64,000 nt of DNA from an uncultured Actinomycetes bacterium (GCA_963746115.1 CAVVAA010000004.1:431218-495217); one strand, 5' to 3'; numbered from the stretch's first letter, positions 13,192-48,784 are shown. A program made the numbers and translations. The notes: generated by a model not told the origin, from the sequence alone.

Positions 13192-13200
13192 AGCGCGACC

Positions 13201-13233
13201 GGTGCCAGGCACCGCGGCGAGGTGCCAGGCACC
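13201..13233. repeat. Palindromic 13-mer pair, family B (GGTGCCAGGCACC-gcggcga-GGTGCCAGGCACC)
   Basis: Two exact copies 7 nt apart, between the convergent cupin (stop 13191) and fae (stop 13265). Confidence 0.9.
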
Positions 13234-13264
13234 GACCTTCGCCAACCTCCGTCGTCGACGGGCG

Positions 13265-13798: not shown

Positions 13799-13905
13799 CC
13801 ACCCTCCTTGACTCGTGGTCGTCCTCCGCCGCGCCAGGGTCGTCAGGCGCGAAACACGCTGGTAGGCTAGAGCGAGAACGTGTCAAGGCGGGAGGTGGGG
13901 CTCGT

Positions 13906-28375: not shown

Positions 28376-28918
28376 ATGCAGATGATGTGGGAACGACGGG
28401 CGGCGAAGCTCGGGGCGGTGCTGGTGGCGGCGGCTGCGGTCGGCGCGGCCGGCGCCGCCGAGGCCCACGCCGCGGCGGGATCTGCCGCAAGCGTGCCCCG
28501 CTGCCGGCTGAGCCAGCTCGCGCTGGCACAGCCCAAGTCGAGCGGTGCGGCCGGGAGCGTTCGGATGCGGTTCGTGTTCACGAATGTGAGCGGGGCGACG
28601 TGCAAGCTCTTCGGCTTCGCAGGGATGGAGCTCCTGAACGCACGCAACGCTCCCCTTCCGACGTACGTCCACCGCGGCACGAGCAGCGTCGTCCCGCCCG
28701 AGCCCGAGGCCGACGTCGTCATGACGCCCGGACAGCACGGGTCGTTCTACGCCGGCTACTCCGATGTCCCAACCGGCGCGCAGACGTGCCGCGTCTCGAC
28801 CTCCGTCGAGGTGACGCCGCCGAACGACGCCAACCACTTCACGCTGAAGCTCGCCATCGCGCCGTGTGGCGGGACGATCACGGTCTCACCCGTCGTGCAC
28901 GGCCGGCTGCCGCTCTGA
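28376..28918 (+). CDS. Secreted DUF4232-like protein
   Basis: ATG 28376 after CAGGAGG, within track ORF 28076..28918. Signal AKLGAVLVAAAAVGAAGAAEAHA. CRLSQL...FVFTNVSGATCKLFGFAGMELL...TCRVSTSVEVTPPND...LAIAPCGG. Confidence 0.65.
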   Translation: MQMMWERRAAKLGAVLVAAAAVGAAGAAEAHAAAGSAASVPRCRLSQLALAQPKSSGAAGSVRMRFVFTNVSGATCKLFGFAGMELLNARNAPLPTYVHRGTSSVVPPEPEADVVMTPGQHGSFYAGYSDVPTGAQTCRVSTSVEVTPPNDANHFTLKLAIAPCGGTITVSPVVHGRLPL

Positions 28919-28934
28919 CGGCAGGTCGGGCCGA

Positions 28935-30107
28935 TCAGGCTCGCGCGCCTGGCCCGTAGGCCAGGCGCAGCAGCCGGCCGGCGGCGAACCGACCCGGGCG
29001 CAGCTCGGAGACGTCGACCGGCGGCGTCCGCCCGGTCACCTCGGCCGCGACCACCTCGCCGACGGCGGGGGAGAGCTTGAACCCGTGGCCGCTCCAGCCG
29101 ACCGCCAGATACAGGCCGTCGATGCCGGGGCACGGGCCCAGGATCGGGTTCCAGTCCGGCGTAATGTCGTACGGCCCCGCCCACGCCCGCTCGACGGCGA
29201 AGTCGGCCAGGCGGGGGTAGCGCACGGCCACCGCCTTGCGGACGATGTCGGCGTACCCGGCCGACGCCTCGTGGTCGCAGTCGTCGGCCCGGTCGAGCGG
29301 ATCCTCGCCGGCGTAGGCGACGGCGCAGAACCGGCGGCCGCGGTCGGGGCGCACGACGACGTTCGTGACGCCGTCCGAGCACACCGCCGAGGGCAGCGGC
29401 GCGCCCGGCTCGCGGCGGGCGACGACCACCTGCAGCCGGCGCAGCTCGATCGGCTGCTCGGCGCCGATCGGGCGCAGTAGGTCGTTCGTCCACGCGCCGG
29501 TCGCGAGGACGACCGTGCCGGCGGCGGTGAGCCCGCGGTCGGTCTCGACCCCGGTCACGCGCCCGTTCTCGACGCGCAGCCCGCGGACGGCGCATCCGAG
29601 CTCGTGGCGCAAACCTCGCGACGACGCGGCCGCGAACCAGCCCAGGCACATCTTCTGCGCGTCGGCGAAGCCGCCGTCCGGCTCGTACGCCGCCCCGGCG
29701 ACCCCGTCGAGCGAGAGCTCGGGCTCGACCTCGCCGATCTCGTCCGGCTCGAGAAAGTGTGTCTCGAGGCCGATCCGCTGCAGCCGGGCGACGTTGTCGC
29801 GGCAGGCAGCTGCGAGCCGCTCGGGCACCGTCAGCAGATAGCCGCAGCGTACGTAGCCGGCGTCGGCGACGCCGACCTCGTTCTCCCAGTCGGCGATCGT
29901 GCGCGTGCCGGCCATGGCCAGGCGAGCGGTGACGGCGTTCGAGTAGTGGCGGCGCACCATCGAGAACGAGCGGCCGGAGTCGCCCGAGCCGGGCCAGCCG
30001 CGGTCGAAGAGGGCGACGCCCCGGTGGCCGTCACGGGTGAGCGCATGCGCCGTCGCGAGGCCGGTGATCCCGGCGCCGACGATGGCGATGTCGGTCGAGT
30101 CGGGCAC
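28935..30107 (-). CDS. FAD-dependent oxidoreductase (DAO family: glycine/D-amino-acid/sarcosine-oxidase-beta-like)
   Basis: Track ORF 28935..30194 trimmed to GTG 30107: VPDSTDIAIVGAGITGLATAHAL. The longer N-terminus would translate the palindromic repeat at 30142-30173. Transcribed divergently from the BMC operon. Confidence 0.8.
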   Translation of the reverse strand: MPDSTDIAIVGAGITGLATAHALTRDGHRGVALFDRGWPGSGDSGRSFSMVRRHYSNAVTARLAMAGTRTIADWENEVGVADAGYVRCGYLLTVPERLAAACRDNVARLQRIGLETHFLEPDEIGEVEPELSLDGVAGAAYEPDGGFADAQKMCLGWFAAASSRGLRHELGCAVRGLRVENGRVTGVETDRGLTAAGTVVLATGAWTNDLLRPIGAEQPIELRRLQVVVARREPGAPLPSAVCSDGVTNVVVRPDRGRRFCAVAYAGEDPLDRADDCDHEASAGYADIVRKAVAVRYPRLADFAVERAWAGPYDITPDWNPILGPCPGIDGLYLAVGWSGHGFKLSPAVGEVVAAEVTGRTPPVDVSELRPGRFAAGRLLRLAYGPGARA

Positions 30108-30141
30108 GGCGGCAACGCTACACCCGCCGACTTCTGCGATG

Positions 30142-30173
30142 GGTGCCTGGCACCGCGTCCGGTGCCAGGCACC
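30142..30173. repeat. Palindromic 13-mer pair, family B (GGTGCCTGGCACC-gcgtcc-GGTGCCAGGCACC)
   Basis: Two exact 13-nt palindromes 6 nt apart, in the divergent control region between the FAD oxidoreductase and the BMC operon. Confidence 0.9.
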
Positions 30174-30187
30174 GGTGCGCCATCGGC

Positions 30188-30233
30188 AGACCAATACGCC
30201 CGATTTGCTTTTTGGTCTGGTATTCGGTACGTT
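30188..30233 (+). promoter_or_regulatory. Candidate promoter/operator of the BMC operon: everted half-sites AGACCA (30188-30193) and TGGTCT (30213-30218), -35-like TTGCTT (30205-30210), -10-like TACGTT (30228-30233)
   Basis: This is the most AT-rich stretch of the intergenic region. The half-sites equal the two halves of the HutC/DasR-type TGGTCTAGACCA motif but in swapped order, 19 nt apart. ATG at 30248. Confidence 0.3.
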
Positions 30234-30247
30234 CCGCCGCGATCGGG

Positions 30248-31540
30248 ATGTACGACTACGGCTTCTTCTCCTACGAGTCCAAGGACGAGTTCCTCGACCG
30301 GTCGCGGCAGTTCTGGAACCCGGACAAGACCGACTTCTGGCAGGACGCCGGGGTCGACCTCGTCATCGACCGCCGCGAGGGCTACTTCTTCTGGGACATG
30401 GCCGGGCGGCGCCTGGTCGACCTGCACCTGAACGGCGGCACGTACAACCTGGGCCACCGCAATCCCGAGCTGATCGCGACGCTCGAGCAGGCGATGCAGC
30501 GCTTCGACATCGGCAACCACCACTTCCCGGCGCTCGCCCGCACCGCCCTGGCCGAGGCGCTCGTGAAGACGTGCGCCCCGAACATGCGCCGGGTGGTCTA
30601 CGGCGCGGGCGGCGGCGAGGCCACCGACATCGCGATCAAGACCGCCCGCCACACCCGCCAGCGGCGCAAGATCGTCTCGATCCTCAAGGGCTACCACGGC
30701 CACACCGGCCTCGCGGTCTCCGCCGGGGACGACCGCTTCTCGAAGCTCTTCCTGGCCGACCGCCCCGACGAGTTCGTGCAGGTGCCGTTCAACGACCTCG
30801 GCGCCATGGAGGGTGCGCTGCGCGCGGGCGACGTGGCCGCCGTGCTGCTCGAGACCATCCCCGCCACGTACGGCTTCCCGCTGCCCGACCCCGGCTACCT
30901 CCAGGGGGTGAAACGGCTCTGCGAGCGGTTCGGCGCCCTCTACATCGCCGACGAGGTGCAGACCGGGCTCATGCGCACGGGCGAGATGTGGGGCATCTCC
31001 AAGGCCGGCGTCGAGCCGGACATCATGGTGATCGGCAAGGGCATCACCGGCGGCATGTACCCGATCTCGTGCGTCGTCCTCTCGGAGGAGTGCTCGGCGT
31101 GGCTGAAGGAGGACGGCTTCGGCCACATCTCCACCGGCGGCGGGGCCGAGCTCGGCTGTGTCGTCGCCCTCAAGGTGCTCGAGATCTGCGGCCGGCCGGA
31201 GGTGCGCTCGATGGTGCACTACATCTCCGACCGCTTCGGCCGCGGCCTGCGCGCGATCCAGGAGCTCTACCCCGACTGGTTCGTCGGCATCCGCCAGGAC
31301 GGCGTGGTCATGGGGCTCGAGTTCGACCATCCCCAGGGCGCGAAGATCGTGATGAAGCAGCTGTACGAGAACGGCGTGTGGGCGATCTTCTCGACGCTCG
31401 ACCCGCGCGTGCTCCAGTTCAAGCCGGGGATCCTGCTCGGCCCGGAGCTGGTGGACGAGGTGCTCGACCGCACCGAGGTGTCGATCGGGCAGGCGCTCGC
31501 CGAGGTGCGCGGCGGCCGGGCCGCGGTGGGGGCGCGATGA
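30248..31540 (+). CDS. Class-III aminotransferase-fold PLP enzyme. In RMM-type BMC loci this is the 1-amino-2-propanol O-phosphate phospho-lyase.
   Basis: ATG 30248 within track ORF 30143..31540. MYDYGFFSYESKDEFLDRSRQFWNP...LNGGTYNLGHRNPE...IADEVQTGLMRTGEMWG...PDIMVIGKGITGGMYP (PLP Lys). Confidence 0.8.
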   Translation: MYDYGFFSYESKDEFLDRSRQFWNPDKTDFWQDAGVDLVIDRREGYFFWDMAGRRLVDLHLNGGTYNLGHRNPELIATLEQAMQRFDIGNHHFPALARTALAEALVKTCAPNMRRVVYGAGGGEATDIAIKTARHTRQRRKIVSILKGYHGHTGLAVSAGDDRFSKLFLADRPDEFVQVPFNDLGAMEGALRAGDVAAVLLETIPATYGFPLPDPGYLQGVKRLCERFGALYIADEVQTGLMRTGEMWGISKAGVEPDIMVIGKGITGGMYPISCVVLSEECSAWLKEDGFGHISTGGGAELGCVVALKVLEICGRPEVRSMVHYISDRFGRGLRAIQELYPDWFVGIRQDGVVMGLEFDHPQGAKIVMKQLYENGVWAIFSTLDPRVLQFKPGILLGPELVDEVLDRTEVSIGQALAEVRGGRAAVGAR

Positions 31541-33042
31541 GCGCCGTCGCCGCCGAGCCGGCCGGCGTCCCCCGGGCGCGGATGATGCTCCAGCGCGCCC
31601 ACTGGGCCGCCACGGCGTTCGCCGCGTACGACCACGAGCGCACCCGCCGCATCGTCGAGGCAGTCGCCGAGGAGGCATACCGAAACGCCGAAAGGTATGC
31701 CGAGTGGGCGGTCACGGAGACCGGCATGGGCGTGGTCGAGCACAAGCGGCGCAAGAACGAGGCCTGCTCGCGCGGGCTGCTCGAGTGGTACGGCGGCCGC
31801 GACTACGTGAGCGCCCGGGTCGATCCCGAGGCGAAGATCGTCGAGCTGCCCCGGCCGGCCGGCGTCGTCCTCGCCCTGACGCCGTCGACGAACCCGATCG
31901 CCACCGTCTACTTCAAGGTGCTGCTGGCGCTGATGACCCGCAACGCCGTCGTCGTCAGCCCGCATCCGCTCGCGCGCGAGTCGTCGGCCGACGCCGCCCA
32001 CCGCCTGGCGGCGGCCGCCGTCGAGGCGGGCGCCCCCGACGGGTGCGTGCAGGCCGTGGAGGAGCCGACGATCCCGCTGATCGAGGCGCTCATGAGCGAC
32101 CCGACGACCGACGTCATCCTGGCGACGGGCGGCGTCGCGGTCGTCCGGGCCGCCTACCGCTCCGGCAACCCGGCGATCGGCGTCGGCCCGGGCAACGTGC
32201 CCGCGCTCGTCGATCACACCGCCGACCTGGCCGCGGCCGCCGAACGGCTGATGGACTCGAAGTGCTTCGACAACTCGATCCTGTGCACGAACGAGTCGTG
32301 CGCGATCGTCGAGGAGCGCTGCGCCGCGGAGTTCGAGCGCGAGCTGGCCCGCCACGGCGGCCACGTGGTCGCGCCGGACGAGGTGGCGGCGGTGCGCGAG
32401 AAGCTCTACCCGGAGGGCCGCATCCGGGTCGACCTGGCCGGGCGCGACGCGGCCCGGCTGGCGGAGGAGTGCGGGATCCGCGTGCCGGCGAAGACGCGCG
32501 TCCTGGTCGCGCCGTTCCCGCTCGTCGTCCCCGAGGAGCCGCTCGCGCGCGAGAAGCTCTTCCCGCTGCTCGGGCTCGTGCGGGTGCCGGACGCGCGCCG
32601 CGGCATCGACGCCGCGTGCGCCATGCTGCGCATCGGCGGGGCCGGCCATTCGGCGGTGATCCACTCGCGCGACCCGCGCACGATCATGGCCTACGGCGCC
32701 GCGGTGAAGGTGCTGCGGGTGGCCGTGAACGTCGGCGGCAGCACCGGCTCGGCGGGCCTCGACACGAACCTCGCGCCGACGATGACGATCGGCACGGGCT
32801 TCTTCGGGCGGTCGTCGCTCGGCGAGAACCTGGAGCCGCGGCATCTGATCAACATGACCCGGGTCGCCTATTCCTCCGACCCGTCCGAGGCCTTCGGCGA
32901 CTTCGCCGACCTCGAGCCGTGGAGCGCCGCGCCCGAGGCCGCACCCGTCGCGGCGCCGGAGCGTCCGGCGGCCGTCGCCGAGGCCCGCGACGAGATCCGC
33001 CGGATCGTGCTCGAGGAGCTGCGGGAGCTGGTGAGACGTTGA
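31537..33042 (+). CDS. CoA-acylating aldehyde dehydrogenase (EutE/PduP-like) with C-terminal amphipathic extension
   Basis: ATG 31537 overlaps the upstream stop (ATGA). Lies in the frame of track ORF 30037..33042. LTPSTNP...ATGGVAVVRAAYRSGNPAIGVGPGN...KCFDNSILCTNE (catalytic Cys). Tail PEAAPVAAPERPAAVAEARDEIRRIVLEELRELVRR. Confidence 0.88.
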   Translation: MSAVAAEPAGVPRARMMLQRAHWAATAFAAYDHERTRRIVEAVAEEAYRNAERYAEWAVTETGMGVVEHKRRKNEACSRGLLEWYGGRDYVSARVDPEAKIVELPRPAGVVLALTPSTNPIATVYFKVLLALMTRNAVVVSPHPLARESSADAAHRLAAAAVEAGAPDGCVQAVEEPTIPLIEALMSDPTTDVILATGGVAVVRAAYRSGNPAIGVGPGNVPALVDHTADLAAAAERLMDSKCFDNSILCTNESCAIVEERCAAEFERELARHGGHVVAPDEVAAVREKLYPEGRIRVDLAGRDAARLAEECGIRVPAKTRVLVAPFPLVVPEEPLAREKLFPLLGLVRVPDARRGIDAACAMLRIGGAGHSAVIHSRDPRTIMAYGAAVKVLRVAVNVGGSTGSAGLDTNLAPTMTIGTGFFGRSSLGENLEPRHLINMTRVAYSSDPSEAFGDFADLEPWSAAPEAAPVAAPERPAAVAEARDEIRRIVLEELRELVRR

Positions 33043-33647
33043 TGGCCGAGCTCAGATCGTTCATCTTCATCGACCAGCTCCAGCCGCAGACGATGTGCTA
33101 CCTCGGCACGTGGATCCGCGGCCGGCTCCCGCGCACGAACATGGCGGCGCAGATCATCGAGATCGCGCCCGGCCTGGACATCGAGCCGCTGACCGACGTC
33201 GCGCTCAAGTCGACCGAGGTGCAGGCGGGCATCCTGGTCGTCGAGCGCCAGTTCGGCTACCTCGAGATCCACTCCCGCTCGACCGCCGAGGTGCACGCCG
33301 CGAGCAGCGCCGTGCTCGAGGCGCTCGGCGCGACGGCCGCCGACGCGACCCGGCCGCAGATCCTGGCGTCGGAGCTGATCACCCGGCTCGACCACCAGCA
33401 CGCCTTCCTGATCAACCGCAACAAGCTCGGGTCGATGGCGCTTCCCGGCGAGTCGCTCTTCGTGCTCGAGATGCAGCCCGCCTCCTACGCGATCCTCGCC
33501 ACGAACGAGGCCGAGAAGGCGGCGCGGATCAAGGTGGTCGACTACCGCATGATCGGCGCCACCGGCCGGGTGTACCTGGCCGGCATGGAGGCCGACGTGC
33601 GCACGGCCGGCGACGCCGCCGTCGCGGCGCTGGGAGGTGCGGTGTGA
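33042..33647 (+). CDS. BMC shell protein, ~200 aa, tandem-domain (BMC-T-like), paralogue 1
   Basis: ATG 33042 overlaps the ALDH stop. MAELRSFIFIDQLQPQTMCYLGTW...VVERQFGYLEIHSRS...INRNKLGSMALPGESLFVLEMQPASYAILATNEAEKAA...GATGRVYLAG. Paralogous to 34802..35443. Position matches the ~200-aa shell genes of RMM loci (from memory). Confidence 0.65.
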   Translation: MAELRSFIFIDQLQPQTMCYLGTWIRGRLPRTNMAAQIIEIAPGLDIEPLTDVALKSTEVQAGILVVERQFGYLEIHSRSTAEVHAASSAVLEALGATAADATRPQILASELITRLDHQHAFLINRNKLGSMALPGESLFVLEMQPASYAILATNEAEKAARIKVVDYRMIGATGRVYLAGMEADVRTAGDAAVAALGGAV

Positions 33648-34270
33648 GCACCCCGGAAGACGCCGACGTGCTGCGCAGCGTCACTCGCGAGGTGCTGGCC
33701 GACCTCCTGCCCGAGCTGCTGTCGGAGGCGCTGACGACGTCGAACGGGAATGGGCATGGGGACAGTCCCCATCCGGGGACTGTCCCCGATTCTCGGCCAG
33801 GCACCGTCCCCCAGGTGCCGGGGCCGCCGATCGCCGCCGTGCATCGCCCCGCCGGGTGGCGTCCGCCGCCCGAGTCGGATACGACCCGGCCGCAGCCCGC
33901 GGCACCGGCGCCCGTGTCGGCGCAGACGGATGCCGGCGCGGCCGTCGAGCGGGTCGACCTGCGCAGCGACGCCGACCTGGACGCGTTCGTGCGCTCGCTC
34001 GTGCACCGGTTCGAGAACCCGCGCGACCGCATGGCGATCCGGTCCGGCAAGCTGCGCTTCCGGCTGGGCGCGACGGCCGAGACGACCTCGCAGCCTGCGT
34101 CCGCGCCGGCGATCCGGATCGAGCGCGGCGCCGTCACCGAGCGGGCCGTGCGCGACGCGGCCGCCCAGGGCGCCCGGCTCGTGCTGGCGCCGCGGGCGGT
34201 GCTGACGCCGATGGCGCGCGACCGCGCCCGGAGCCTGGGAGTCGAGATCGAGAAGGAGCGACCATGCTGA
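33644..34270 (+). CDS. BMC-associated protein of unknown function, 208 aa. Has an N-terminal amphipathic helix and a Pro-rich linker that contains an in-frame palindromic repeat.
   Basis: GTG 33644 overlaps the upstream stop (GTGTGA). [30 protein letters not shown]...[26 protein letters not shown]...[47 protein letters not shown]. Confidence 0.6.
33758..33787. repeat. Palindromic 13-mer pair, family A (GGGGACAGTCCCC-atcc-GGGGACTGTCCCC), inside a CDS
   Basis: Exact copies. Translated in frame as [10 protein letters not shown] within the linker of gene 33644..34270. Confidence 0.9.
33795..33822. repeat. Degenerate family-B pair (GGCCAGGCACC ... GGTGCCGGGG), inside the same CDS
   Basis: 10/13 and about 9/13 matches to GGTGCCWGGCACC, 7 nt downstream of the family-A pair. 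Translated as [10 protein letters not shown]. Confidence 0.4.
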
Positions 34271-34506
34271 GAGCGACCGTCACCGGCGCTGTGTGGGCGA
34301 CCAAGCGGGTCGACCGGATCCCGAACGGCGCGTTCCTCGAGGTCGAGATGGACGGCGGCGGCCGCGCGGTCGCGTTCGACGTGCTCGGAAGCGGCGTCGG
34401 CGAGCGCGTGCTGGTCGCAACCGGCTCGGTCGCCTCGAGCTGGCTCGGGGACGACCATCCGCCCATCGACGCACTCATCATCGGATCCATCGACGAGAAC
34501 GAGTAA
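34264..34506 (+). CDS. BMC vertex pentamer (BMC-P, EutN/CcmL family)
   Basis: ATG 34264 overlaps the upstream stop. 80 aa: [57 protein letters not shown]...[11 protein letters not shown]. Matches the EutN pattern by eye. Confidence 0.85.
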
Positions 34507-34517
34507 GAGGAGGAGTC

Positions 34518-34796
34518 ATGGCACAGAACGCAATCGGCATGATCGAGACCAAGGGGTACGTGGCGGCAATCGCTGCCGCGGACGCAATGGTCAAGGCCGC
34601 GAACGTCACGATCGTGGCCCGCGAGCAGGTCGGCGACGGCCTCGTGTCCGTCGTGATCCAGGGCGACGTCGGGGCCGTGAAGGCCGCCACGGAGGCGGGC
34701 GCCGAGACCGCCTCGAGCGTCGGCGACCTCGTGTCGGTGCACGTCATCCCGCGCCCGCACTCCGAGCTCGACAAGCACTTCGTGCACGCGGGCTAG
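34518..34796 (+). CDS. BMC hexamer shell protein (BMC-H, PduA/EutM-like, Pfam BMC domain)
   Basis: ATG 34518 after AGGAGGAG. 92 aa: [81 protein letters not shown]. Confidence 0.93.
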
Positions 34797-34801
34797 CGGG
34801 G

Positions 34802-35443
34802 ATGGAGAACTCCGCAGTCCAGCTGCGGGTCTACCTGCCGATCCCGAGGCTCGGCCGCCAGTTCGCGGCCTATCTGGGGACGCCCACGCGTGCCCGTGGA
34901 TACCCGCCGATCGAGGGCGACCACGCGCTGATCGTCGAGGTGGCGCCGGCGCTCGCGATCGAGCGGGTGACCGACCTCGCGCTGCGGTCGGTGCCGGAGA
35001 TCGAGCCGGGCATCCTCTACGTCGAGCGCCAGTTCGGCGTGCTCGAGGTGCACCACCGGGACAAGGCGCTCGTCGACCGGGCCGGCGCGGCCATCCTCGA
35101 CGGGATCGGGGCGACGGCCGCGGACGCGCTGCGGCCGCGTATCCTCTACGCCGACGTGATCGAGGACATCACCGACCAGCACGCGGTGATCATCAACCGC
35201 AACCGCGAGGCGTCGATGGTGCTGCCGGGCGAGACGCTGCTCGTGTACGAGGTGGTGCCCGCGCTGCACGCCGCCATGGCCGCCAACGCCGCCGAGCGGG
35301 CCGCGCCGGAGGCGACGCTCGTCACCGTCTCGATGATCGGCGCCGCCGGCCGCATCTACATGTCCGGCGACACGGAGAGCGTCGTGCGCGCCCGCGACGA
35401 GATCACGCGCGTGCTCGAGTCGGTGGAGGGCCGTGAGCACTGA
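34802..35443 (+). CDS. BMC shell protein, ~213 aa, tandem-domain (BMC-T-like), paralogue 2
   Basis: 213-aa ORF. YVERQFGVLEVHHRD...INRNREASMVLPGETLLVYEVVPALHAAMAANAAERAA...GAAGRIYMSG. Collinear with 33042..33647. Confidence 0.65.
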   Translation: MENSAVQLRVYLPIPRLGRQFAAYLGTPTRARGYPPIEGDHALIVEVAPALAIERVTDLALRSVPEIEPGILYVERQFGVLEVHHRDKALVDRAGAAILDGIGATAADALRPRILYADVIEDITDQHAVIINRNREASMVLPGETLLVYEVVPALHAAMAANAAERAAPEATLVTVSMIGAAGRIYMSGDTESVVRARDEITRVLESVEGREH

Positions 35444-36419
35444 CCAGGCTGCGATCGACCGCCTGGCCCAGGCCGCGCTGCCCGCGTACGACCTCGACCC
35501 GGCGGCCACGGTCGCCCTGATCAACGTGTCCGAGAACTGGACGTACCGGATCGAGGAGCCGGGCGGCCGCGCGTTCGCGCTGCGCGTCCACCGGCCGACG
35601 TACCACACGGCCGAGGAGATCGCCTCGGAGCTCGACTGGATCGACGCGCTGCGCGATGACGGCGTGGTGGAGACGGCGCATGCCGTCGCCGGCCGGGGCG
35701 GGGACCGCGTCTGCCAGGTGCGCACCGACGAGCTCGGCGAGCGCAACGTCGTGCTGTTCGACTGGCTCGCGGGCGAGATGCCCGACGCCGACGCGCACGA
35801 CCTCATGCCCGGGTTCCGCACGCTCGGCGCCGTCTCGGCCCGGATGCACCGCCATTCCCGCAGCTGGGCGCCGCCGTCGGGGTTCGCCCGCTTCCGCTGG
35901 GAGTACGACACGACGCTCGGCGCGAACGGCCACTGGGGCCGGTGGCAGGACGGCCTCGGGATGGGATCGGAGGAGCTCGCGCTGCTCGGCCGGCTCGACG
36001 CCACGCTACGGCAACGGCTCGACGCCTACGGCCAGGGGGCCGAGCGGTTCGGCCTCGTCCATGCCGACATCCGCCTCGCCAACCTGCTCGTCGACGGCGA
36101 GCACGTGCGCGTGATCGACTTCGACGACTGCGGCTGGTCGTGGTTCATGTACGACTTCGCCACGACCGTGTCGTTCATCGAGGACCACCCGGACGTGCCC
36201 CGGCTGAAGGCCGCCTGGGTGGAGGGCTACCGCTCCGCCGCCGAGCTCGACCCGGCCGACGAGGCCGAGCTGGACACCTTCGTCATGCTGCGCCGGCTCC
36301 TGCTCGTGGCCTGGATCGGCTCGCACCACCAGTTCGCCACCGAGGCCGCCGAGCTCGGCGCCGGATTCACCGCCGGCACCTGCGCGCTCGCCGAGCGGTA
36401 CCTCTCCGCATACGGCTGA
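35433..36419 (+). CDS. APH-fold phosphotransferase. In RMM-type loci this is the 1-amino-2-propanol kinase.
   Basis: 328-aa ORF with GTG start, overlapping the upstream gene by 11 nt. INVSENWTYRIE...FGLVHADIRLANLLVDGEHVRVIDFDDCGW. Confidence 0.82.
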   Translation: MSTDQAAIDRLAQAALPAYDLDPAATVALINVSENWTYRIEEPGGRAFALRVHRPTYHTAEEIASELDWIDALRDDGVVETAHAVAGRGGDRVCQVRTDELGERNVVLFDWLAGEMPDADAHDLMPGFRTLGAVSARMHRHSRSWAPPSGFARFRWEYDTTLGANGHWGRWQDGLGMGSEELALLGRLDATLRQRLDAYGQGAERFGLVHADIRLANLLVDGEHVRVIDFDDCGWSWFMYDFATTVSFIEDHPDVPRLKAAWVEGYRSAAELDPADEAELDTFVMLRRLLLVAWIGSHHQFATEAAELGAGFTAGTCALAERYLSAYG

Positions 36420-36424
36420 GCCGG

Positions 36425-36772
36425 CTACTTGATGCTGACCACGAGCCGCAGGCGACCCGCATGTGGGACGTGGATCACGTGTGGCACGGTCACCGGTGGT
36501 AGGCCGCCCGTCCTGATGCTGACCGTGTACGTCCCGGGAGCCACGTCGAAGGCGAACCGGCCCTGTCGGTCGGTGCGGACGTCGGCCGACTCGCCATCAC
36601 CCTCGATCTCCAGGCGCACACCGGGCATCGCGACCGGCCCGCCCGCTGCAGGGCCGCCGATGCGCACGAGCGTGCCGTGCGTGTGGACCGGCCTGGAGCT
36701 CGCGGTCGATCCGCTTCCACATGCGGAGACGAGGAGGACGGCGAGCAGCACGACCGCGCGGGACCAATTCAT
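36425..36772 (-). CDS. Small lipoprotein with carboxypeptidase-regulatory-like (Ig-like beta-sandwich) domain
   Basis: Last 115 codons of track ORF 36425..37972(-), from ATG 36772. MNWSRAVVLLAVLLVSACGSG (lipobox LVSAC). VRLEIEGDGESADVRTDRQGRFAFDVAPGTYTVSI. Confidence 0.6.
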   Translation of the reverse strand: MNWSRAVVLLAVLLVSACGSGSTASSRPVHTHGTLVRIGGPAAGGPVAMPGVRLEIEGDGESADVRTDRQGRFAFDVAPGTYTVSIRTGGLPPVTVPHVIHVPHAGRLRLVVSIK

Positions 36773-36791
36773 GGCATTTGGACCGTAGAAT
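36761..36791 (+). promoter_or_regulatory. Candidate operator/promoter upstream of the SDR-GntR genes: everted GGACCA (36761-36766) / TGGACC (36779-36784), then -10-like TAGAAT (36786-36791)
   Basis: Same everted GACCA...TGG(A/T)C arrangement as at 30188-30218. Sits in a 54-bp divergent gap. Confidence 0.25.
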
Positions 36792-36826
36792 GGGCCGCCC
36801 GGTTCCACCGATCGCACGAGGAGGAG

Positions 36827-37612
36827 ATGATGTTCACCCCACTCACCGGCCGGACGGTGCTCGTCACCGGCGGCACCAAGGGCATCGGCAAGGGCATCGC
36901 GGGCGAGTTCGCAGCTGCGGGCTGCAACGTCGCCCTGAGCGGCCGCGGCGAACATGCCGGCGAGCAGGCGGTGCTCGACCTCGAAGCGCGCGGCGGCCAC
37001 GTCTCCTTCTACAAGGGCGACGTCGCCAGGGCCGACGACTGCGAGCGGGTGGCGTCCGAGGTCGCCTCGCGCTACGGCGGCATCGACATCGTCTGCGCCA
37101 ACGCCGGCGTCTTCCCCGACGTCAAGCTGGCGGACATGACCGAGGACGACATCGACACGATCTTCGCGACCAACGTCAAGGGCACCATGCTGACGGTGAA
37201 GGCCTGCCTGCCCCACCTGGAGCGCTCCGGCCACGGCCGGGTGATCCTGACGAGCTCGATCACCGGCCCGATCACCGGGTTCCCGGGCTGGTCGCACTAC
37301 GGCGCGACGAAGGCGGCCCAGCTCGGCTTTCTGCGCACCGCCTGCATCGAGCTCGCGCCGAAGCGGATCACGGTGAACGCCGTCCTGCCGGGCAACGTCG
37401 AGTCGGAGGGGATGGACGAGCTCGGCCCCGAGTACCGGGCATCGATGGAGGCGTCGATCCCGCTCGGCCGCCTCGGCTACCCGTCGGAGATCGGGGCGGC
37501 GGCGGTGTTCCTGGCGACCGACGAGGCGGGCTACATCACCGGCCAGACCATCGTGGTCGACGGCGGCCAGATACAGCCCGAGTCGCTGGCCGCGCTCGAG
37601 GCCGCCCGGTAG
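36827..37612 (+). CDS. Short-chain dehydrogenase/reductase (FabG-like). In RMM-type loci this is the aminopropanol/aminoacetone dehydrogenase.
   Basis: ATG 36827 after GAGGAGGAG, within track ORF 36677..37612. VLVTGGTKGIGKGIA...NAGV...SSITG...YGATKAA. Confidence 0.88.
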   Translation: MMFTPLTGRTVLVTGGTKGIGKGIAGEFAAAGCNVALSGRGEHAGEQAVLDLEARGGHVSFYKGDVARADDCERVASEVASRYGGIDIVCANAGVFPDVKLADMTEDDIDTIFATNVKGTMLTVKACLPHLERSGHGRVILTSSITGPITGFPGWSHYGATKAAQLGFLRTACIELAPKRITVNAVLPGNVESEGMDELGPEYRASMEASIPLGRLGYPSEIGAAAVFLATDEAGYITGQTIVVDGGQIQPESLAALEAAR

Positions 37613-37619
37613 GGGCGCC

Positions 37620-38414
37620 GTGACCGAGCCCGTCCCCGGACTGCCCGCCGCCTTCGCGCCGCTCGGGCCGGCGGCGGCGGGCCTGCGCGACCGCCTCGCC
37701 GCCGAGATCGAGTCCGGCGCGCCAGGCCCGGGCGAGCGCCTGGGCGCCGAGCGCGAGCTCGCCGCCCGGCTGGGGGTGAGCCGCTCGACGCTGCGCGCCG
37801 CCCTGGATGCGCTCGAGACGGCGGGGGTCGTGCACCGCGTCCGCGGCCGGTCGGGCGGCATCTTCGTCTCGGAGCGGCGGGTCGAGCGCGACCTGACGAG
37901 CCTCACCAGCCTGCCGGCGTACATGCGCCGCCAGGGGTTCCAGTCCGGCGCCCGCGTGCTCTCGACGGCCACGGTCGGCGCCGACGCCGAGGCAGCCGCG
38001 GCCCTCGACGTGCCCGAGGGCGCGCTCGTGCTCGAGGTCGTCCGCGTCCGCCTCGCCGACGAGCAGCCGATCTCGCTCGAGCGGGCCCGCTTCCCCGCCG
38101 ACCGTTTCCCCGGGCTGCTCGACCGCTCGCTGTCGGGATCGCTGTACGAGCTGCTCGAGTCCGGCTACGGCCTGCGCCCGAGCGAGGCCGAGGAGCGGGT
38201 CGAGGTGGTCGGCGCGACGGCCGCCGAGGCCCGCGTGCTCGAGGTGCGCGCGGGCGCGCCGCTGGTGTCGATCGCCCGCACGGCCTGGTCGGAGGACGGC
38301 CGCCCGTTCGAGCGCTCGAACGACCTGTTCCGGGCCGACCGGGTGCGCATCGTCGTGCGCGTGCGCACGCGCGACCCGCATTCGCTGGGAAGCGCCGTCG
38401 AGGTCGTCCGCTAG
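37620..38414 (+). CDS. GntR-family transcriptional regulator, HutC subfamily (UTRA effector domain)
   Basis: 264-aa ORF. GERLGAERELAARLGVSRSTLRAALDALETAGVVHRVRGRSGGIFV, followed by a UTRA-like C-terminal half. Confidence 0.85.
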   Translation: MTEPVPGLPAAFAPLGPAAAGLRDRLAAEIESGAPGPGERLGAERELAARLGVSRSTLRAALDALETAGVVHRVRGRSGGIFVSERRVERDLTSLTSLPAYMRRQGFQSGARVLSTATVGADAEAAAALDVPEGALVLEVVRVRLADEQPISLERARFPADRFPGLLDRSLSGSLYELLESGYGLRPSEAEERVEVVGATAAEARVLEVRAGAPLVSIARTAWSEDGRPFERSNDLFRADRVRIVVRVRTRDPHSLGSAVEVVR

Positions 38415-38425
38415 CAGGGGCGTGG

Positions 38426-38923
38426 GTGGTGACCGAGTTACAGCAACTGCGAGCCGACCATGCAGTGGCGGTTCTCGCCTTCGAGCTGGCAAACCGCGCG
38501 TACTTCGCTGCGTCGATCTCCGACCGGGGCGATGCGTTCTTTGACGAGTTCACCGCACGGCACCGCGCCCTGCTGGACGAGCAGGACGCCGGCATCGGCG
38601 CGTTCTACGTGCTCGTCGCCGAAGATGGCTCGGTCCTGGGCCGGTTCAACCTGGTCTTTGTCGACCATGGGACGGCGGAGCTCGGGTACCGGGTCGCGCA
38701 GCACGTCGCCGGACGCGGCGTGGCGACAGAGACCGTGCGGGAACTCTGCCGGCTGGCCGCGACCCGTCACGGCCTGCGGAGGCTCAGGGCAGCCACCGCC
38801 TGTGAGAATGTCGCCTCCCGGAAGGTGCTGGCCAACGCCGGGTTCGTCGCGGTCGGCCCGGCCGATCCAGCCGACATCGGCGGAAAGCCGGGCACCTGGT
38901 ACGAGCGCGCCATCGCTGAATAA
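38426..38923 (+). CDS. GNAT-family N-acetyltransferase (RimJ/RimL-like)
   Basis: 165-aa ORF. ELGYRVAQHVAGRGVATETVRELCRLA...RLRAATACENVASRKVLANAGF. Confidence 0.8.
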   Translation: MVTELQQLRADHAVAVLAFELANRAYFAASISDRGDAFFDEFTARHRALLDEQDAGIGAFYVLVAEDGSVLGRFNLVFVDHGTAELGYRVAQHVAGRGVATETVRELCRLAATRHGLRRLRAATACENVASRKVLANAGFVAVGPADPADIGGKPGTWYERAIAE

Positions 38924-38949
38924 ACGGGGTCTGACCCCGTTTATTCAGC
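38915..38949. terminator. Extended family-C palindrome (35-nt perfect inverted repeat around GGGGTCTGACCCC), a putative bidirectional terminator hairpin
   Basis: GCTGAATAAACGGGGTC-T-GACCCCGTTTATTCAGC. The TAA stop of the GNAT gene (38921-38923) lies inside the left arm. There is no obvious U-tract. Confidence 0.55.
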
Positions 38950-39070
38950 TGGGGGGCGCCAGGCGGCCTGGGAGCGGGCCACGCAGCAGGAGCGGCCGAC
39001 GCGGCAGATGAGCCGGTCGAGCGTGCGCAGGATGCGGGCGGCGGTCGCCATCCGTCCACGGTAGCCCAAA

Positions 39071-40045
39071 GTGCCATACTCCCCGGAAGCGATGGCCGAG
39101 CACGTCATCACCCGCGACGCGCCCACCCACCGCAGCTGGGACGTGGACACGGAGCCGGTCGTGCGGATCCGGCCCGGCGACGTCGTCACCGCCGAGACCG
39201 ACGACTTCGCGGGCGGCCAGATCACCCGCACCTCCACCGCGGCCGACCTGCCCCGGCTCGACTTCGACCTGATCTACCCGCTCGCCGGGCCGATCTACGT
39301 CGAAGGCGCCGAGCCCGGCGACGCGGTCGCGATCGAGTTCCTCGAGTTCGAGCTCCCCGAGTGGGGCTGGGCCTGCATCATCCCCGGCCTCGGGCTGCTC
39401 CCGCCGGGCGAGTTCACCGATCCGTACATCAAGTTCTTCGACCTGACCGGCGGCGCCGAGATGGACTTCGCGCCCGGCGTGCGCCTGCCGATCGAGCCGT
39501 TCTGCGGCACGACGGGGGTGCCCGGCGCCGGGATGCACGGCGTGCCCATCCCGCCGCCGCACGCCGGTGGCGGCAACATCGACTGCCGCCACCTGACGAA
39601 GGGGACGACGCTGTACCTGCCCGTCGGCGCGCCGGGCGCGCTCGTCTCGCTGGGCGACGCCCACGCCGCCCAGGGCGACGGCGAGGTGGCGATCTCCGGC
39701 GTCGAGTGCGCGATGCGGACGACGCTGCGGATCACCGTCGAGCGGGGCATGAACCTGCGCGCCCCGGCGCTGCGGCGGCGGCCCGGTCCGCTGACTCCGC
39801 GCGTCGACCGCGGCGGCTGGTTCGCGACGACCGGCGTCGAGCCCGACCTGATGGAGGCGTCCCGCTCGGCCGTCCGCGCGATGATCGAGCACCTGGTCGC
39901 ACGCCGCGGCCTCACACGTGAGGACGCTTACATGTTGTGCTCGCTTGCGGGTGATCTGAAGGTCACCGAGGTCGTCGATGCGCCAAACTGGATGGTGGGC
40001 TGCTTCATGCCCGACGCGGTGTTCACCAACCAGGAGGTCGCGTGA
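39071..40045 (+). CDS. Acetamidase/formamidase-family amidohydrolase
   Basis: 324-aa ORF. PLAGPIYVEGAEPGDAVAIEFLE...WGWACIIPGLGLL...GGNIDCRHLTKGTTLYLPV...LVSLGDAHAAQGDGEV. Confidence 0.85.
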   Translation: MPYSPEAMAEHVITRDAPTHRSWDVDTEPVVRIRPGDVVTAETDDFAGGQITRTSTAADLPRLDFDLIYPLAGPIYVEGAEPGDAVAIEFLEFELPEWGWACIIPGLGLLPPGEFTDPYIKFFDLTGGAEMDFAPGVRLPIEPFCGTTGVPGAGMHGVPIPPPHAGGGNIDCRHLTKGTTLYLPVGAPGALVSLGDAHAAQGDGEVAISGVECAMRTTLRITVERGMNLRAPALRRRPGPLTPRVDRGGWFATTGVEPDLMEASRSAVRAMIEHLVARRGLTREDAYMLCSLAGDLKVTEVVDAPNWMVGCFMPDAVFTNQEVA

Positions 40046-40488
40046 TGCACGACGTGGCGATGAGAGAGTCCCTCGAGCGGCTGGCGGAGCACGACGGCGG
40101 GAGGCGGCTTCTGCAGCTCGCCCTCCGCAGCATCGAGCGCGGCGACCACGAGCTCGTCTCCGGCTGCTGGACGCGCAAGGGCGACGCCGGATGCCTGTTC
40201 CAGCACGCCTACTGGCAGGGCGTGGCCGACGGCGTCTTCGCCGACGACGGCCGTGCCCGGGCCTGGGTCAGCGGCGTCGCCGGCAAGGACTACGACCGTG
40301 TGATCGACGTGATCGCGGCCTTCGACAAGCTCGCGCGGGCGGAGTACGCCGTCGAGCAGCGCCGCTTCCGGCCGCCCGTGCTCGACCGTGAGCGCTGGCG
40401 CGAGCGCGTCTCCGCGCTGCTCGTCGAGGTGCTCGGCGCGGGCGGCGACCGCACTCCGGGAGCCCTGCTCGACCCCGTCACGGCCTAG
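40042..40488 (+). CDS. Hypothetical protein, 148 aa, translationally coupled to the amidase
   Basis: GTGATG overlap with the amidase stop (40043-40045). No family recognised. Contains CWTRKGDAGCLFQHAYW. Confidence 0.5.
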   Translation: MMHDVAMRESLERLAEHDGGRRLLQLALRSIERGDHELVSGCWTRKGDAGCLFQHAYWQGVADGVFADDGRARAWVSGVAGKDYDRVIDVIAAFDKLARAEYAVEQRRFRPPVLDRERWRERVSALLVEVLGAGGDRTPGALLDPVTA

Positions 40489-40505
40489 CAGCCCCTCTGC
40501 AGGGC

Positions 40506-40556
40506 TTGACCTCCGCGCGCCGTAAATGGTACAAACGGCTCCATAGCTGTCTGACA
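40506..40556 (+). promoter_or_regulatory. Candidate promoter/operator upstream of the permease: TTGACC (40506-40511) and palindrome TGTCTGACA (40548-40556)
   Basis: The lowest-GC stretch between 40489 and 40602. GTCTGAC resembles a compact GntR/HutC GT-N-AC core. RBS GAGGGAGGTGG precedes ATG 40603. Confidence 0.25.
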
Positions 40557-40602
40557 ACTTCCGGCGGGCTTGAGGCCGGAACACCTAGAGGGAGGTGGTC
40601 GA

Positions 40603-42190
40603 ATGAGCAGTGAAGGCGGAGGCATGCACGAGCATCACGAGGGCATGCTTCCCGTGGTCGACAGCGTCGACGTTTCGGCGCGCGATGACGTCCACAAGCT
40701 GCACGGCGGCGCGATCGGTCTCTGGGGGGTGCTCTTCCTCACAGTGACCGGATCGGCGCCGATCTCGGCGATGCTCTTCAACACGCCGATCTCGATGGGC
40801 TTCGGAAACGGCCTCGGCACACCGGCCGGCTTCATGATCGCCACCGTCGTGCTGACCATCTTCTCGGTCGGCTACGTGGCGATGGCCCGCAAGGTCACCG
40901 CCGCGGGCGGCTTCTACAGCTTCATCAGCCACGGCCTCGGCCGTGAGCTCGGGATGGCGTCGGGACTGTCCATGGTCGTGGCGTACTCCGTGTTCGAGGT
41001 ATCGCTCATCGGCGGGTTCGCCTACTTCGCGACGCTCAAGCTGAACCAGTACGGCTACAACCCGTCGTGGTACTGGCCCGCGCTGTTCATGATCGTCCTG
41101 ATCTCGGTGCTCGCCTACTTCGACGTGCACATCTCCGCCCGGGTGCTGGGCGTGGCGCTGATCTGCGAGATCGTGCTCCTGCTGGTGTTCGACCTGGTCG
41201 TCTTCGGCCACGGCGGCAACAACATCCAGCTCGCCGCGATCAACCCGGTCAACGCGTTCAAGGGGCTCGGAGCCAGCGGCTCCGGCAACACGGCCGTCGC
41301 CGCCGGCGCCGCCGGGATCGGCATCTTCTTCGCCTTCTGGTCGTGGGTCGGCTTCGAGATGGCCCCGAACTACGGCGAGGAGTCGAAGAACCCCAAGAAG
41401 ATCGTGCCGAGGGCGATGTACATCTCGGTGATCGGCCTCGGGATCTTCTACACGGTCACCTCATGGGCCGCGATCTCGGGGTATCACTCCACCCAGGAAG
41501 CGGCCTTCGTGGCCCAGAACCAGTCGGCCGAGTTCTTCTTCATCCCGGCGAAGGAGTTCGGGAACGAGTTCCTGAAGGACGCGCTCAGCTGGTTCATCAT
41601 CACCGGCTCGTTCGCCTGCGGGATGGCGTTCCACAACACGACCGCGCGGTACATGTACTCGCTCGGCCGTGAGGGCGTCCTGCCCCGCGCGCTCGGGCGC
41701 ACGCACCCCAAGCACCGCAGTCCGCACATCGCATCGATCACGCAGTCGGTGATCGCGCTGATCATCGTGCGTGCTGTTCGTGACGCTGGCGAGCACCGGC
41801 GGCGACCCTGCGTCGTTCTCCGTCGCCTACCTGCAGGTGTACGGCCTGATGGCGGTGATGGGGGTCGTCTCGATCCTGGCCATCCAGGCGCTCGTCTCGA
41901 TCGCGATCGTGAACTACTTCCGCACCCACCATGCGGGCGACCATCACTGGTGGACGACGATGACCGCGCCGATCATCGCCGCGGTCACGCAGGCCTACGT
42001 GCTCTACCTGGCCATCGACAACCTCACGTTCCTGGGCGCCGGCTACTGGTACGCGAAGTGGCTGTGCTGGGCCGATCTCGCCATCTTCCTCGGCGGTATC
42101 GCCTACGCGTTCTACGTGAAGTCGAACGACCGGGCCAAGTACGAGGTGATCGGCCGTCTGATCAACGACGGCATGGACACTGCCGACTAG
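40603..42190 (+). pseudogene. APC-superfamily amino-acid/amine permease, one +1 frame break near 41770
   Basis: ATG 40603. MSSEGGGMHEHH...GLWGVLFLTVTGSAPISAM...FWSWVGFEMAPNYGEESKNPKK...SITQSVIALIIV | VLFVTLASTGGDPASFSVAYLQVYGLMAV... (track ORFs 40570..42324 and 41771..42190). Confidence 0.8.
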
Positions 42191-42223
42191 GCAGCCCACG
42201 CGGTGGTGTGGGGGCTTGCGCCC

Positions 42224-42896
42224 CTACACCACCGCCGCGGCGGCGTCGAGCGCGCAGCGCAGCTGCTCGTCGAGCGAGCCGCCCTCGACCAGACGGCCGT
42301 CCAGCGCGGCGGTGCCGATCGTGAAGGCCCACACGCCCCGCTCGGCCAGCGCCTGGATCCGGGCCGGCGAGTCGACCGAGCCGGCCGCGATCACGGGCAG
42401 CGACGTCGCGCCGACCACGGCCTCGACGAGCGCGTCGACGTCGCTTGTCGTAGCGGTAGGCGAGCAGGTTGATGCCGTCGACGCCGAGGCTCTCGGCCCT
42501 GCGGGCGTCCTCGGCGATGTCCTCGATCGAGCCGCGCAGGAGGCAGGGGTGGCCGACGATCTGGCCGACGTAGGGGAAGAACTTGATGCCCGTGCCGGCG
42601 ATGATCTCCTGCACCGGCTCGATCAGCGTGCCGCCGATCAGGTAGTCGGGGCCGATCTGCGCGGCCGCTCGGGCGGACTTGAGCGTATCCTCGGGCGTCT
42701 CGGACACGACCTCGAGGTGGGTCGTGTGGCCGTTTCGGCGGATGTCGTCCATGAGCGCGGAGAGCTCGTCGCGGGGCAGGCCCACGTCCTTGCAGCCGAC
42801 GTGGGTGACGCCGCTCTGGGCGATCGAGGCGTACACGGCTCTGGCGTCCGTGAGCGTCAGGTCGTCCCGCGTGAGCATGAAGATGAACTCGATCAC
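42224..42896 (-). pseudogene. TIM-barrel-like protein of uncertain family (phosphate-binding barrel, NanE/ThiE-like by eye), one frame break near 42445
   Basis: GTG 42896 with GGAGGA 6 nt upstream. VIEFIFMLTRDDLTLTDARAVYASIAQSGVTHVGCKDVGL...GINLLAYRYD | DVDALVEAVVGATSLPVIAAGSVDSPARIQALAERGVWAFTIGTA. Length 673 nt = 3n+1. Confidence 0.5.
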
Positions 42897-44030: not shown

Positions 44031-44049
44031 GGGCCGTAGGATCCCGGCG

Positions 44050-46307: not shown

Positions 46308-46316
46308 GAGGACCCT

Positions 46317-47610: not shown

Positions 47611-47617
47611 GAGGGCC

Positions 47618-47650
47618 GGTGCCTGGCACCGCGACGCGGTGCCAGGCACC
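47618..47650. repeat. Palindromic 13-mer pair, family B (GGTGCCTGGCACC-gcgacgc-GGTGCCAGGCACC)
   Basis: Exact copies 7 nt apart, between co-directional genes, 15 nt upstream of GTG 47665. Confidence 0.9.
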
Positions 47651-47664
47651 TGTAGAGTCGGGCC

Positions 47665-48783: not shown

Positions 48784-48784
48784 C

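Follow-up and report, generated by a model that had tools for sequence, protein, structure and literature searches.

Which of the genes surrounding a bacterial microcompartment (BMC) locus take part in the pathway that it encodes, and which are simply neighbors? This question is raised by a stretch of 64,000 nucleotides (hereafter, the window; ~73% GC) from an uncultured Actinomycetes bacterium (GCA_963746115.1, CAVVAA010000004.1:431218-495217), whose core at 30248-38414 is a microcompartment locus of the RMM1/AAUM type. Around this core, the original prediction had pointed to a DAO-family FAD oxidoreductase, a small lipoprotein, a GNAT acetyltransferase together with an acetamidase/formamidase-family amidase, and a 148-aa protein, and had proposed that several of them extend the substrate range of the compartment. 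All of these genes are present where they had been placed; comparison with related loci divides them into three classes: genes linked to the locus, the 148-aa partner of a permease, and insertions. Of the extra genes, only those for the amidase and its transporter, and perhaps that for the flavin oxidase, are conserved partners of the locus. The explanation that we favor, with somewhat better than even confidence, is an RMM1/AAUM locus embedded in conserved cytosolic peripheral genes, with an amidase-permease pair feeding it. The genes at issue, including the GNAT and the amidase between the regulator and the permease as predicted (coordinates and Pfam matches agree), are:

28935-30107, minus strand: DAO oxidoreductase, 390 aa (Pfam DAO)
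36425-36772, minus strand: small lipoprotein, 115 aa (CarboxypepD_reg)
38426-38923, plus strand: GNAT acetyltransferase (Acetyltransf_3)
39071-40045, plus strand: FmdA/AmdA amidase (Pfam; probable true start 39092)
40042-40488, plus strand: 148-aa orphan protein (homolog conservation)
40570-42190, plus strand: APC-family amino-acid permease, in two frames (Pfam AA_permease and frame plot)

The comparison covered 168 related loci, namely, 80 anchored on the kinase of the core (species-representative genomes), 80 anchored on the 148-aa protein (metagenomes) and 8 contexts obtained by exact-protein look-ups, against which all window proteins were searched by tblastn. Shell genes are present in 54 of the 80 kinase-anchored loci, 36 of which have full 10-kb flanks; the occurrence counts refer to these 36 full-length RMM loci:

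Aldehyde dehydrogenase (AldDH): 36 of 36
Aminotransferase: 35 of 36
Short-chain dehydrogenase/reductase (SDR): 34 of 36
GntR regulator: 27 of 36
Permease: 22 of 36
Amidase: 12 of 36
TIM-barrel gene and zinc-dependent alcohol dehydrogenase (Zn-ADH): 10 of 36
148-aa protein: 5 of 36
DAO ortholog: 4 of 36
Lipoprotein: 3 of 36
GNAT: 0 of 36

This neighborhood comparison, which the original prediction had itself proposed, retains the amidase as a linked gene and, weakly, the DAO, but not the GNAT or the lipoprotein, and reassigns the 148-aa protein to the permease.

The amidase matches FmdA_AmdA (PF03069) at E=1.3e-49, with 169.6 bits against a Pfam cut-off of 27. Its homologs, covering 96-97% of the query, are 312-317 aa long, and because of this length translation probably begins at the ATG at 39092. 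The best structural match is the acetamidase 2II1 (E=1e-43), with alignment of the GGN.D and GD.HA.QGDGE motifs; 3TKK was aligned as well, and among the members of the acetamidase/formamidase family (PF03069; 2II1, 3TKK, 2F4L, 2WKN) the window enzyme matches the short, ~300-aa ones over their full length. Its context of a permease and aminopropanol genes is unlike that of the studied acetamidases, and its score against the formamidase FmdA equivalog NF045496 is 113.5 bits, below the cut-off of 500.

An FmdA/AmdA amidase occurs within 10 kb of 12 of the 36 full-length RMM loci, in two groups: four loci of the window's own clade (76-89% identity) and eight Actinomycetes loci (e.g., Nocardioides), whose enzymes are 30-36% identical to the window amidase. 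Both subfamilies belong to FmdA_AmdA, with 64-76% identity within each among the sampled members and 29-36% between them. Despite differing gene arrangements, RMM-associated amidases almost always adjoin the permease: in the Actinomycetes loci, the amidase follows the permease in one operon that is divergent from the aminotransferase gene (amidase<-permease), while L008 and L019 have the order GntR->amidase->permease, with another permease subtype and without the 148-aa gene. The background is low: where shell genes are missing, an amidase was found in 1 of 26 loci anchored on the kinase and in none of 7 anchored on the 148-aa gene. The single background case (L039, 5172-12479, from an Actinoplanes metagenome-assembled genome) is itself an aminopropanol-pathway locus, in which amidase and permease are divergent from the aminotransferase, kinase, SDR and GntR genes, and shell and AldDH genes are absent; it resembles a compartment-free aminopropanol pathway that retains the amidase. 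The amidase is therefore associated with the aminopropanol genes and with their permease, and this association has arisen in two independent forms. The predicted function of the amidase in feeding or detoxifying N-acylated amino alcohols or aminoketones is supported in outline: the enzyme recurs beside RMM permeases in two distant lineages, which would fit a feeder step of amide hydrolysis. The same subfamily is also found in shell-less loci (L166, L167 and L039) and in L168, and its substrate is putative. No amidase was seen at the RMM-type locus of plasmid pRHL2 in Rhodococcus jostii RHA1, an atypical duplicated locus with incomplete annotation (L165, 400544-408521), where an identical shell-gene block (the same accessions twice) lies on either side of the aminotransferase gene.

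Translational coupling of the 148-aa gene to the amidase had been read from a GTGATG overlap, which is indeed found at 40042-40047, with the amidase stop codon (TGA, 40043-40045) overlapping the 148-aa start. The open reading frame (ORF) is likewise confirmed as a real conserved gene with 339 homologs, none of its similarity being to a Pfam family. The protein carries the invariant motif G-C-W...A-G-C-L-F-Q-H; its family forms 43 clusters at 50% identity among 1.84 billion representatives, and its structure model, mostly helical with a pLDDT of 84, gave no fold match in the PDB. In 63 of 69 evaluable loci, the next gene downstream, on the same strand, encodes a permease of a subtype 70-91% identical to that of the window; the six exceptions are mostly short or error-ridden contigs. 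Directly upstream, the TIM-barrel gene is found in 30 of 52 loci and the amidase in 14. The 148-aa-permease pair is seen beside RMM loci, beside another microcompartment type, and in flanks devoid of microcompartment genes (among others, L126 and L152). This distribution suggests that the 148-aa protein is a lineage-restricted partner of one permease subtype and not of the amidase. Because the gene keeps to its permease and has the amidase upstream in only a minority of loci, the GTGATG coupling is a derived, clade-specific by-product of rearrangement.

The other microcompartment type adjoining this pair was observed in L114 (2151-12887), L120, L124 and L159. The L114-type locus encodes GATase, GXGXG and Glu_synthase proteins (reminiscent of a three-subunit glutamate-synthase-like enzyme), a 613-aa AldDH, BMC-H, a cyclophilin-like DUF3830 protein, BMC-P, a tandem BMC protein and an IS200-like gene.

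The DAO gene starts with GTG at 30107, leaving a gap of exactly 140 bp to the ATG of the aminotransferase gene. Its product matches Pfam DAO (PF01266) over its full length (profile positions 1-352 of 353; E=1.8e-65; 222 bits), and the best solved structure is 1Y56_B (E=1e-39). No specific NCBIfam model was passed among those for sarcosine oxidase beta, glycine oxidase ThiO and D-amino-acid dehydrogenase, the best being soxB (138 bits versus a cut-off of 529), with ThiO at 105 versus 251. The enzyme falls in the sarcosine-oxidase-beta/glycine-oxidase-like group: with sarcosine oxidase beta, glycine oxidase and proline dehydrogenase beta (1Y56_B, 1VRQ_B), it shares the full-length domain and the N-terminal GxGxxG dinucleotide-binding motif. 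As a difference, no genes for alpha, gamma or delta subunits are located nearby. DAO orthologs occupy the same position in L005-L008 (76-87% identity).

Two amidase-anchored contigs of one small clade, L166 (3200-10481) and L167 (7944-16774), bear on the relation of these enzymes to the compartment. Both are shell-less and carry orthologs in window order (DAO, 74-80% identity; SDR, 78-79%; amidase, 75-77%; TIM-barrel gene, 83%; Zn-ADH, 81-83%), along with a permease, the second GntR and FGGY genes, and in both the DAO adjoins the SDR. The aminotransferase, AldDH, shell, kinase and first GntR genes were not found in either contig by tblastn. Because adjacency of SDR and GntR is nearly universal in RMM loci, the shell-less version appears to have arisen by loss of the compartment block, probably in a single evolutionary event for both contigs. 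Since DAO, SDR, amidase and permease persist without shell genes, the linked genes are independent of the compartment. Moreover, the amidase and the DAO align end to end with their solved homologs and show no terminal extension, which argues against an encapsulation peptide on either enzyme. Both are best regarded as cytosolic peripheral enzymes that do not depend on the shell, and the claim that the linked genes extend the compartment is not borne out by these loci. A role for the DAO in the amine chemistry of the locus, also predicted, is mildly favored by its retention beside the SDR in the shell-less loci, although among shell-bearing loci it is adjacent in the closest clade only; where the shell is missing, it would be the obvious candidate for disposing of the aminoketone product of the SDR.

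In the favored explanation, 1-amino-2-propanol or aminoacetone would be processed, as in the RMM1/AAUM type, by the SDR, the kinase, the class-III aminotransferase-like lyase and the AldDH within the shell. The permease and the amidase would form an uptake-and-hydrolysis pair, in which a small amide, once taken up by the permease, is hydrolyzed by the FmdA-type amidase to an amine, amino alcohol or ammonia, to be passed to the SDR and the compartment. The DAO would most likely oxidize the C-N bond of the same amine pool, for example that of aminoacetone, providing a shell-free route. The 148-aa protein would have become coupled to the amidase once its permease cassette had replaced an older permease in this clade, and the GNAT and the lipoprotein would be recent insertions at variable junctions, with no sign of a role. 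What the sequences show directly are the gene identities, their pattern of co-occurrence, the insertions and the frameshifts; which substrates are used, which way the flux runs and what the DAO and the 148-aa protein do is inferred.

Three leads follow from this analysis: the recurrent permease-amidase pair, the shell-less derivative and the orphan permease partner. The permease-amidase pair is absent from the searchable RMM catalog papers and points to an amide precursor, making the amidase a concrete enzyme for assay on such compounds. The shell-less locus indicates which genes are able to work without a compartment and helps to separate cargo from peripheral enzymes, and the 148-aa family is small, unannotated and tightly linked to its permease.

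The core of the RMM1/AAUM type and the intergenic region before it are laid out as follows, the genes having been called by third-position GC and confirmed with Pfam:

30108-30247: divergent intergenic region, 140 bp (sequence and length)
30248-31540, plus strand: class-III aminotransferase-like enzyme (Pfam; ATG start at 30248)
31537-33042, plus strand: AldDH (Pfam)
33042-33647, plus strand: tandem BMC protein, first (BMC domain, E=1.2e-7)
33644-34270, plus strand: 208-aa protein without assigned function
34264-34506, plus strand: BMC-P (Pfam)
34518-34796, plus strand: BMC-H (Pfam)
34802-35443, plus strand: tandem BMC protein, second (Pfam matches of orthologs)
35433-36419, plus strand: APH kinase (Pfam; 6EF6 match)
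36827-37612, plus strand: SDR, aminopropanol dehydrogenase type (Pfam)
37620-38414, plus strand: GntR/HutC (GntR/UTRA) regulator (Pfam)

The shell set has the RMM1/AAUM composition of one BMC-H (E=1.3e-27 in the profile search), one BMC-P (EutN_CcmL, E=9e-18) and two tandem (BMC-T) proteins, with CsoS1D_N/BMC matches in the orthologs of both. The kinase, as expected of this type, is homologous to the (S)-1-amino-2-propanol kinase of Mycobacterium smegmatis (6EF6_A; 49% identity, E=3.7e-91, residues 11-327), and the genes for the aminotransferase-like enzyme, AldDH, SDR and GntR are clustered as in the RMM1/AAUM gene set. Core gene order is the same in the 54 shell-bearing loci. The gene set, including an amino-acid permease, is shared with the RMM1/AAUM (Aut) locus of M. 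smegmatis and Rhodococcus, for which gene lists have been published (PMC4207490, PMC6620236 and the supplement of PMC8217296). There, however, the permease is divergent from the aminotransferase gene, whereas in the window it is located downstream of the regulator. The host lineages differ too, that of the window being Gaiellales-like, with closest relatives labeled Gaiellales or uncultured Actinomycetes. The published gene lists of these three RMM sources, as far as they could be read, contain no mention of the FmdA amidase, the DAO, the 148-aa protein, the GNAT or the lipoprotein.

Downstream of the permease lies a further set of catabolic genes:

about 42224-42896, minus strand: TIM-barrel-like gene, ~223 aa (weak NanE/HisA similarity)
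42972-44030, plus strand: Zn-ADH (profile and PDB matches)
44050-44799, plus strand: second GntR regulator
after 44799: FGGY kinase, gene without assignment, enolase-superfamily enzyme, LacI regulator

The module at 42972-49798 thus comprises the Zn-ADH, GntR, the FGGY kinase, a 396-aa protein without assignment, an MR_MLE enzyme and the LacI regulator. The best PDB matches of the Zn-ADH include archaeal L-threonine 3-dehydrogenase structures (about 1e-37), and its scores against the L-threonine 3-dehydrogenase models are 172 bits versus a cut-off of 380 and 169 versus 458. Its identification as a true threonine dehydrogenase was rejected on these NCBIfam scores and kept as a lead; a function as a threonine-to-aminoacetone feeder is possible. 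The Zn-ADH, TIM-barrel and GntR genes adjoin RMM in all Gaiellales-like and Solirubrobacterales loci sampled, and in most relatives the TIM-barrel-like gene is the first of an operon in which the 148-aa and permease genes come next.

This arrangement raises the possibility, which we consider unlikely but worth serious attention, that the amidase, the 148-aa protein and the permease serve this neighboring module (TIM-barrel gene, threonine-dehydrogenase-like Zn-ADH, second GntR, FGGY kinase and enolase-superfamily enzyme), the two clusters being merely adjacent. The TIM-barrel, 148-aa and permease genes are co-directional and divergent from Zn-ADH and the second GntR in most relatives, and the module, which has its own regulator and continues with FGGY and MR_MLE genes, occurs without microcompartment genes in the flank in L126, L132, L135, L142, L146, L152 and L123. 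Against this view, the amidase gene of L118, L133, L147 and L148 runs in the direction of the RMM operon and toward the 148-aa and permease genes, which are convergent with it, and in Actinomycetes the amidase-permease pair stands beside RMM without any Zn-ADH module. Furthermore, the module adjoins RMM despite rearrangements in Gaiellales-like and Solirubrobacterales loci (10 of 36), suggesting that it is linked to the compartment locus rather than adjacent by accident.

A frame break in the permease near 41770, as originally noted, was traced to a single-base insertion at ~41771 (ATCGTGC[G]TGCTG) by comparison with four close relatives (L087, L007, L100 and L094); intact orthologs in L002 and L003 are 528 aa long. 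The TIM-barrel-like gene has a +1 insertion of its own near 42443, where the tblastn match is split between frames -3 and -1 and the DNA alignment with L087 shows one extra base. The two +1 insertions thus fall within ~670 bp, both outside homopolymer runs, in adjacent genes that most relatives combine with the 148-aa gene in a single operon. In these comparisons, the rest of the genes of this region are intact. They represent either real decay of the uptake module or assembly error.

Regulation was considered from the intergenic sequences. Within the 140-bp region between the DAO and aminotransferase genes, only the aminotransferase-proximal ~55 bp are conserved (L005-L007). This part contains the inverted repeat AGACCAAT-N17-TTGGTCT at 30188-30218, followed by GGTATTCGGTAC (to 30230), upstream of the aminotransferase gene. 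The repeat, a candidate binding site of the HutC-type GntR regulator, is shared with L005-L007 and occurs only once in the window. Between the regulator and the amidase, two further features were found:

38915-38949, plus strand: perfect 16-bp hairpin over the GNAT stop codon (folding)
38941-39051, minus strand: Cys-rich small ORF of 36 codons, candidate gene (conservation in relatives)

The hairpin (-27.4 kcal/mol, z=-4.8) and a conserved leader of ~110 bp separate the regulator and GNAT genes from the amidase. The small ORF (36-38 codons, MATAARILRTLDRLICRVGRSCCVARSQAAW...) is located on the opposite strand of the leader, divergent from the amidase, and is kept in L001, L003, L087, L089, L091 and L109, with a third-codon-position GC content (GC3) of 0.89-0.97. 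Its substitutions per codon position (69/62/88) show mild third-position enrichment only; the ORF may encode a small protein or mark a conserved element of the leader. None of these features speaks for transcription of the amidase unit together with the core. A promoter and terminator scan of 28800-42400 found none, the scan being uninformative at such GC content.

The GNAT and the lipoprotein have a different history from that of the linked genes. The GNAT is related to RimJ/RimL-like enzymes by a domain match (Acetyltransf_3, E=1.3e-17, Pfam) and remote similarity to 1NSL and 3IGR, and has no close characterized relative. No tblastn match to it was found in the 168 loci. In loci with ~90% DNA identity to the window, positions 38413-38915 are missing (L001) or ~38415-38955 are unaligned (L087, L109). 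The gene is placed between the regulator stop codon and the 16-bp hairpin, which in L001 stands directly after the GntR stop, and its GC3 is 0.83 versus 0.95-0.97 in its neighbors. At the same junction, L005 carries an M29 aminopeptidase gene (12987-14075), and L002 a phospholipase D (PLD)-family gene with two small ORFs (7203-8989). The GNAT is best read as a recent, window-specific insertion of ~500 bp. More generally, the regulator-amidase junction was observed to be a hot spot for variable cargo.

The lipoprotein gene lies, as predicted, antisense between the kinase and SDR genes, and a third-position GC frame plot agrees with its placement on the minus strand. Its product has a CarboxypepD_reg domain (E=2.9e-9) and a putative signal peptide with the candidate lipobox VSAC (MNWSRAVVLLAVLLVSAC fits a lipobox by eye only), and is predicted to be exported. 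Full-length copies with 42-64% identity occur in L003 and L005-L007, and fragments with less than 50% coverage in L004 and L086; the gene is absent from L001, L002, L008, L087, L089 and L109. With a GC3 of 0.845 versus 0.95-0.97 in its neighbors, it is best read as a local variable insertion between kinase and SDR. Membership of the pathway is not supported for either gene: the GNAT is absent from all 168 loci, has an outlying GC3 and stands at a junction that holds other cargo in other genomes, and the lipoprotein is patchy in close relatives, atypical in composition and predicted to be exported. Two of the four kinds of gene originally flagged are therefore local insertions to be dropped from pathway models.

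These observations also decide largely against the full model of the original prediction, in which N-acylated amino alcohols or aminoketones would be turned over jointly by the GNAT and the amidase, and the compartment itself would accept more substrates through the action of these two enzymes and the DAO. The two genes are adjacent on the same strand, and acetylation and deacetylation of small amines is chemically plausible. The model nevertheless appears very improbable: its GNAT component is largely refuted by the lack of that gene even in loci at ~90% DNA identity; the GC3 of the gene is atypical and unrelated genes stand at its junction in L005 and L002; a strong hairpin lies between GNAT and amidase; and the linked genes persist without shell genes.

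Several observations weigh against the favored explanation of an amidase-permease pair feeding the RMM1/AAUM locus. Amidase, DAO and Zn-ADH all score below every NCBIfam equivalog cut-off, and their substrates are putative. In two thirds of the RMM loci, the 10-kb flanks hold no amidase gene, and an amidase homolog of 74% identity is located in an unrelated context in L168. Adjacency of the DAO is limited to one clade plus L166 and L167 and, because these two contigs probably record one event, could be explained by shared ancestry. The frameshifted permease may leave the proposed uptake step nonfunctional in this genome. Finally, the candidate operator AGACCAAT-N17-TTGGTCT does not recur upstream of the amidase and, because of its absence and the strong hairpin between the two units, co-regulation of the core and the amidase is not indicated.

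Some of these points would also suit the view that no extra gene is functionally linked to the core and that common descent and chance have made all of them neighbors. The DAO, lipoprotein and GNAT genes are limited to close relatives or to the window, the amidase also occurs elsewhere (L168), and the loci are phylogenetically non-independent, the counts carrying no tree correction. Such a view is improbable, however, given two amidase subfamilies with 29-36% identity beside RMM permeases, in different arrangements and different Actinomycetota classes, and background loci that almost never carry an amidase.

The favored explanation can be extended to a bolder proposal, which remains doubtful. 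In soil Actinomycetota, the natural RMM/AAUM feedstock would be taken up not as the free amine but as an amide conjugate of aminopropanol or aminoacetone, with the amine released by the permease-amidase pair and the DAO acting as a shell-independent bypass. The orphan 148-aa Cys-motif protein would then be a new subunit, accessory or sensory, of those APC permeases that serve microcompartment pathways, and the GNAT, the M29 aminopeptidase and the PLD enzyme might be alternative release or modification enzymes.

The remainder of the 140-bp intergenic region differs in character from its conserved part. A prominent palindrome at 30142-30173 forms a hairpin with a 14-bp stem (-39.4 kcal/mol, z=-4.2). 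Its sequence, GGTGCCWGGCACC, occurs in pairs at 13201-13233, 30142-30173 and 47618-47650 (three occurrences versus 0.23 expected by chance) and looks like a REP-like dispersed repeat; in Rfam, its sole match is a sub-threshold one to naRNA4 (E=0.94). The region as a shared operator was rejected in part, the palindrome being a dispersed repeat that is unconserved in relatives. The shared 140-bp control region of the original prediction is therefore exact in its divergence and length, but only ~55 bp of it are conserved and the rest is a dispersed-repeat copy. Related GC-rich hairpins were observed at intergenic sites in relatives (e.g., L003 and L109), and a second hairpin type, ACGGGGTCTGACCCCG, is found in the window at 38922 and 52562.

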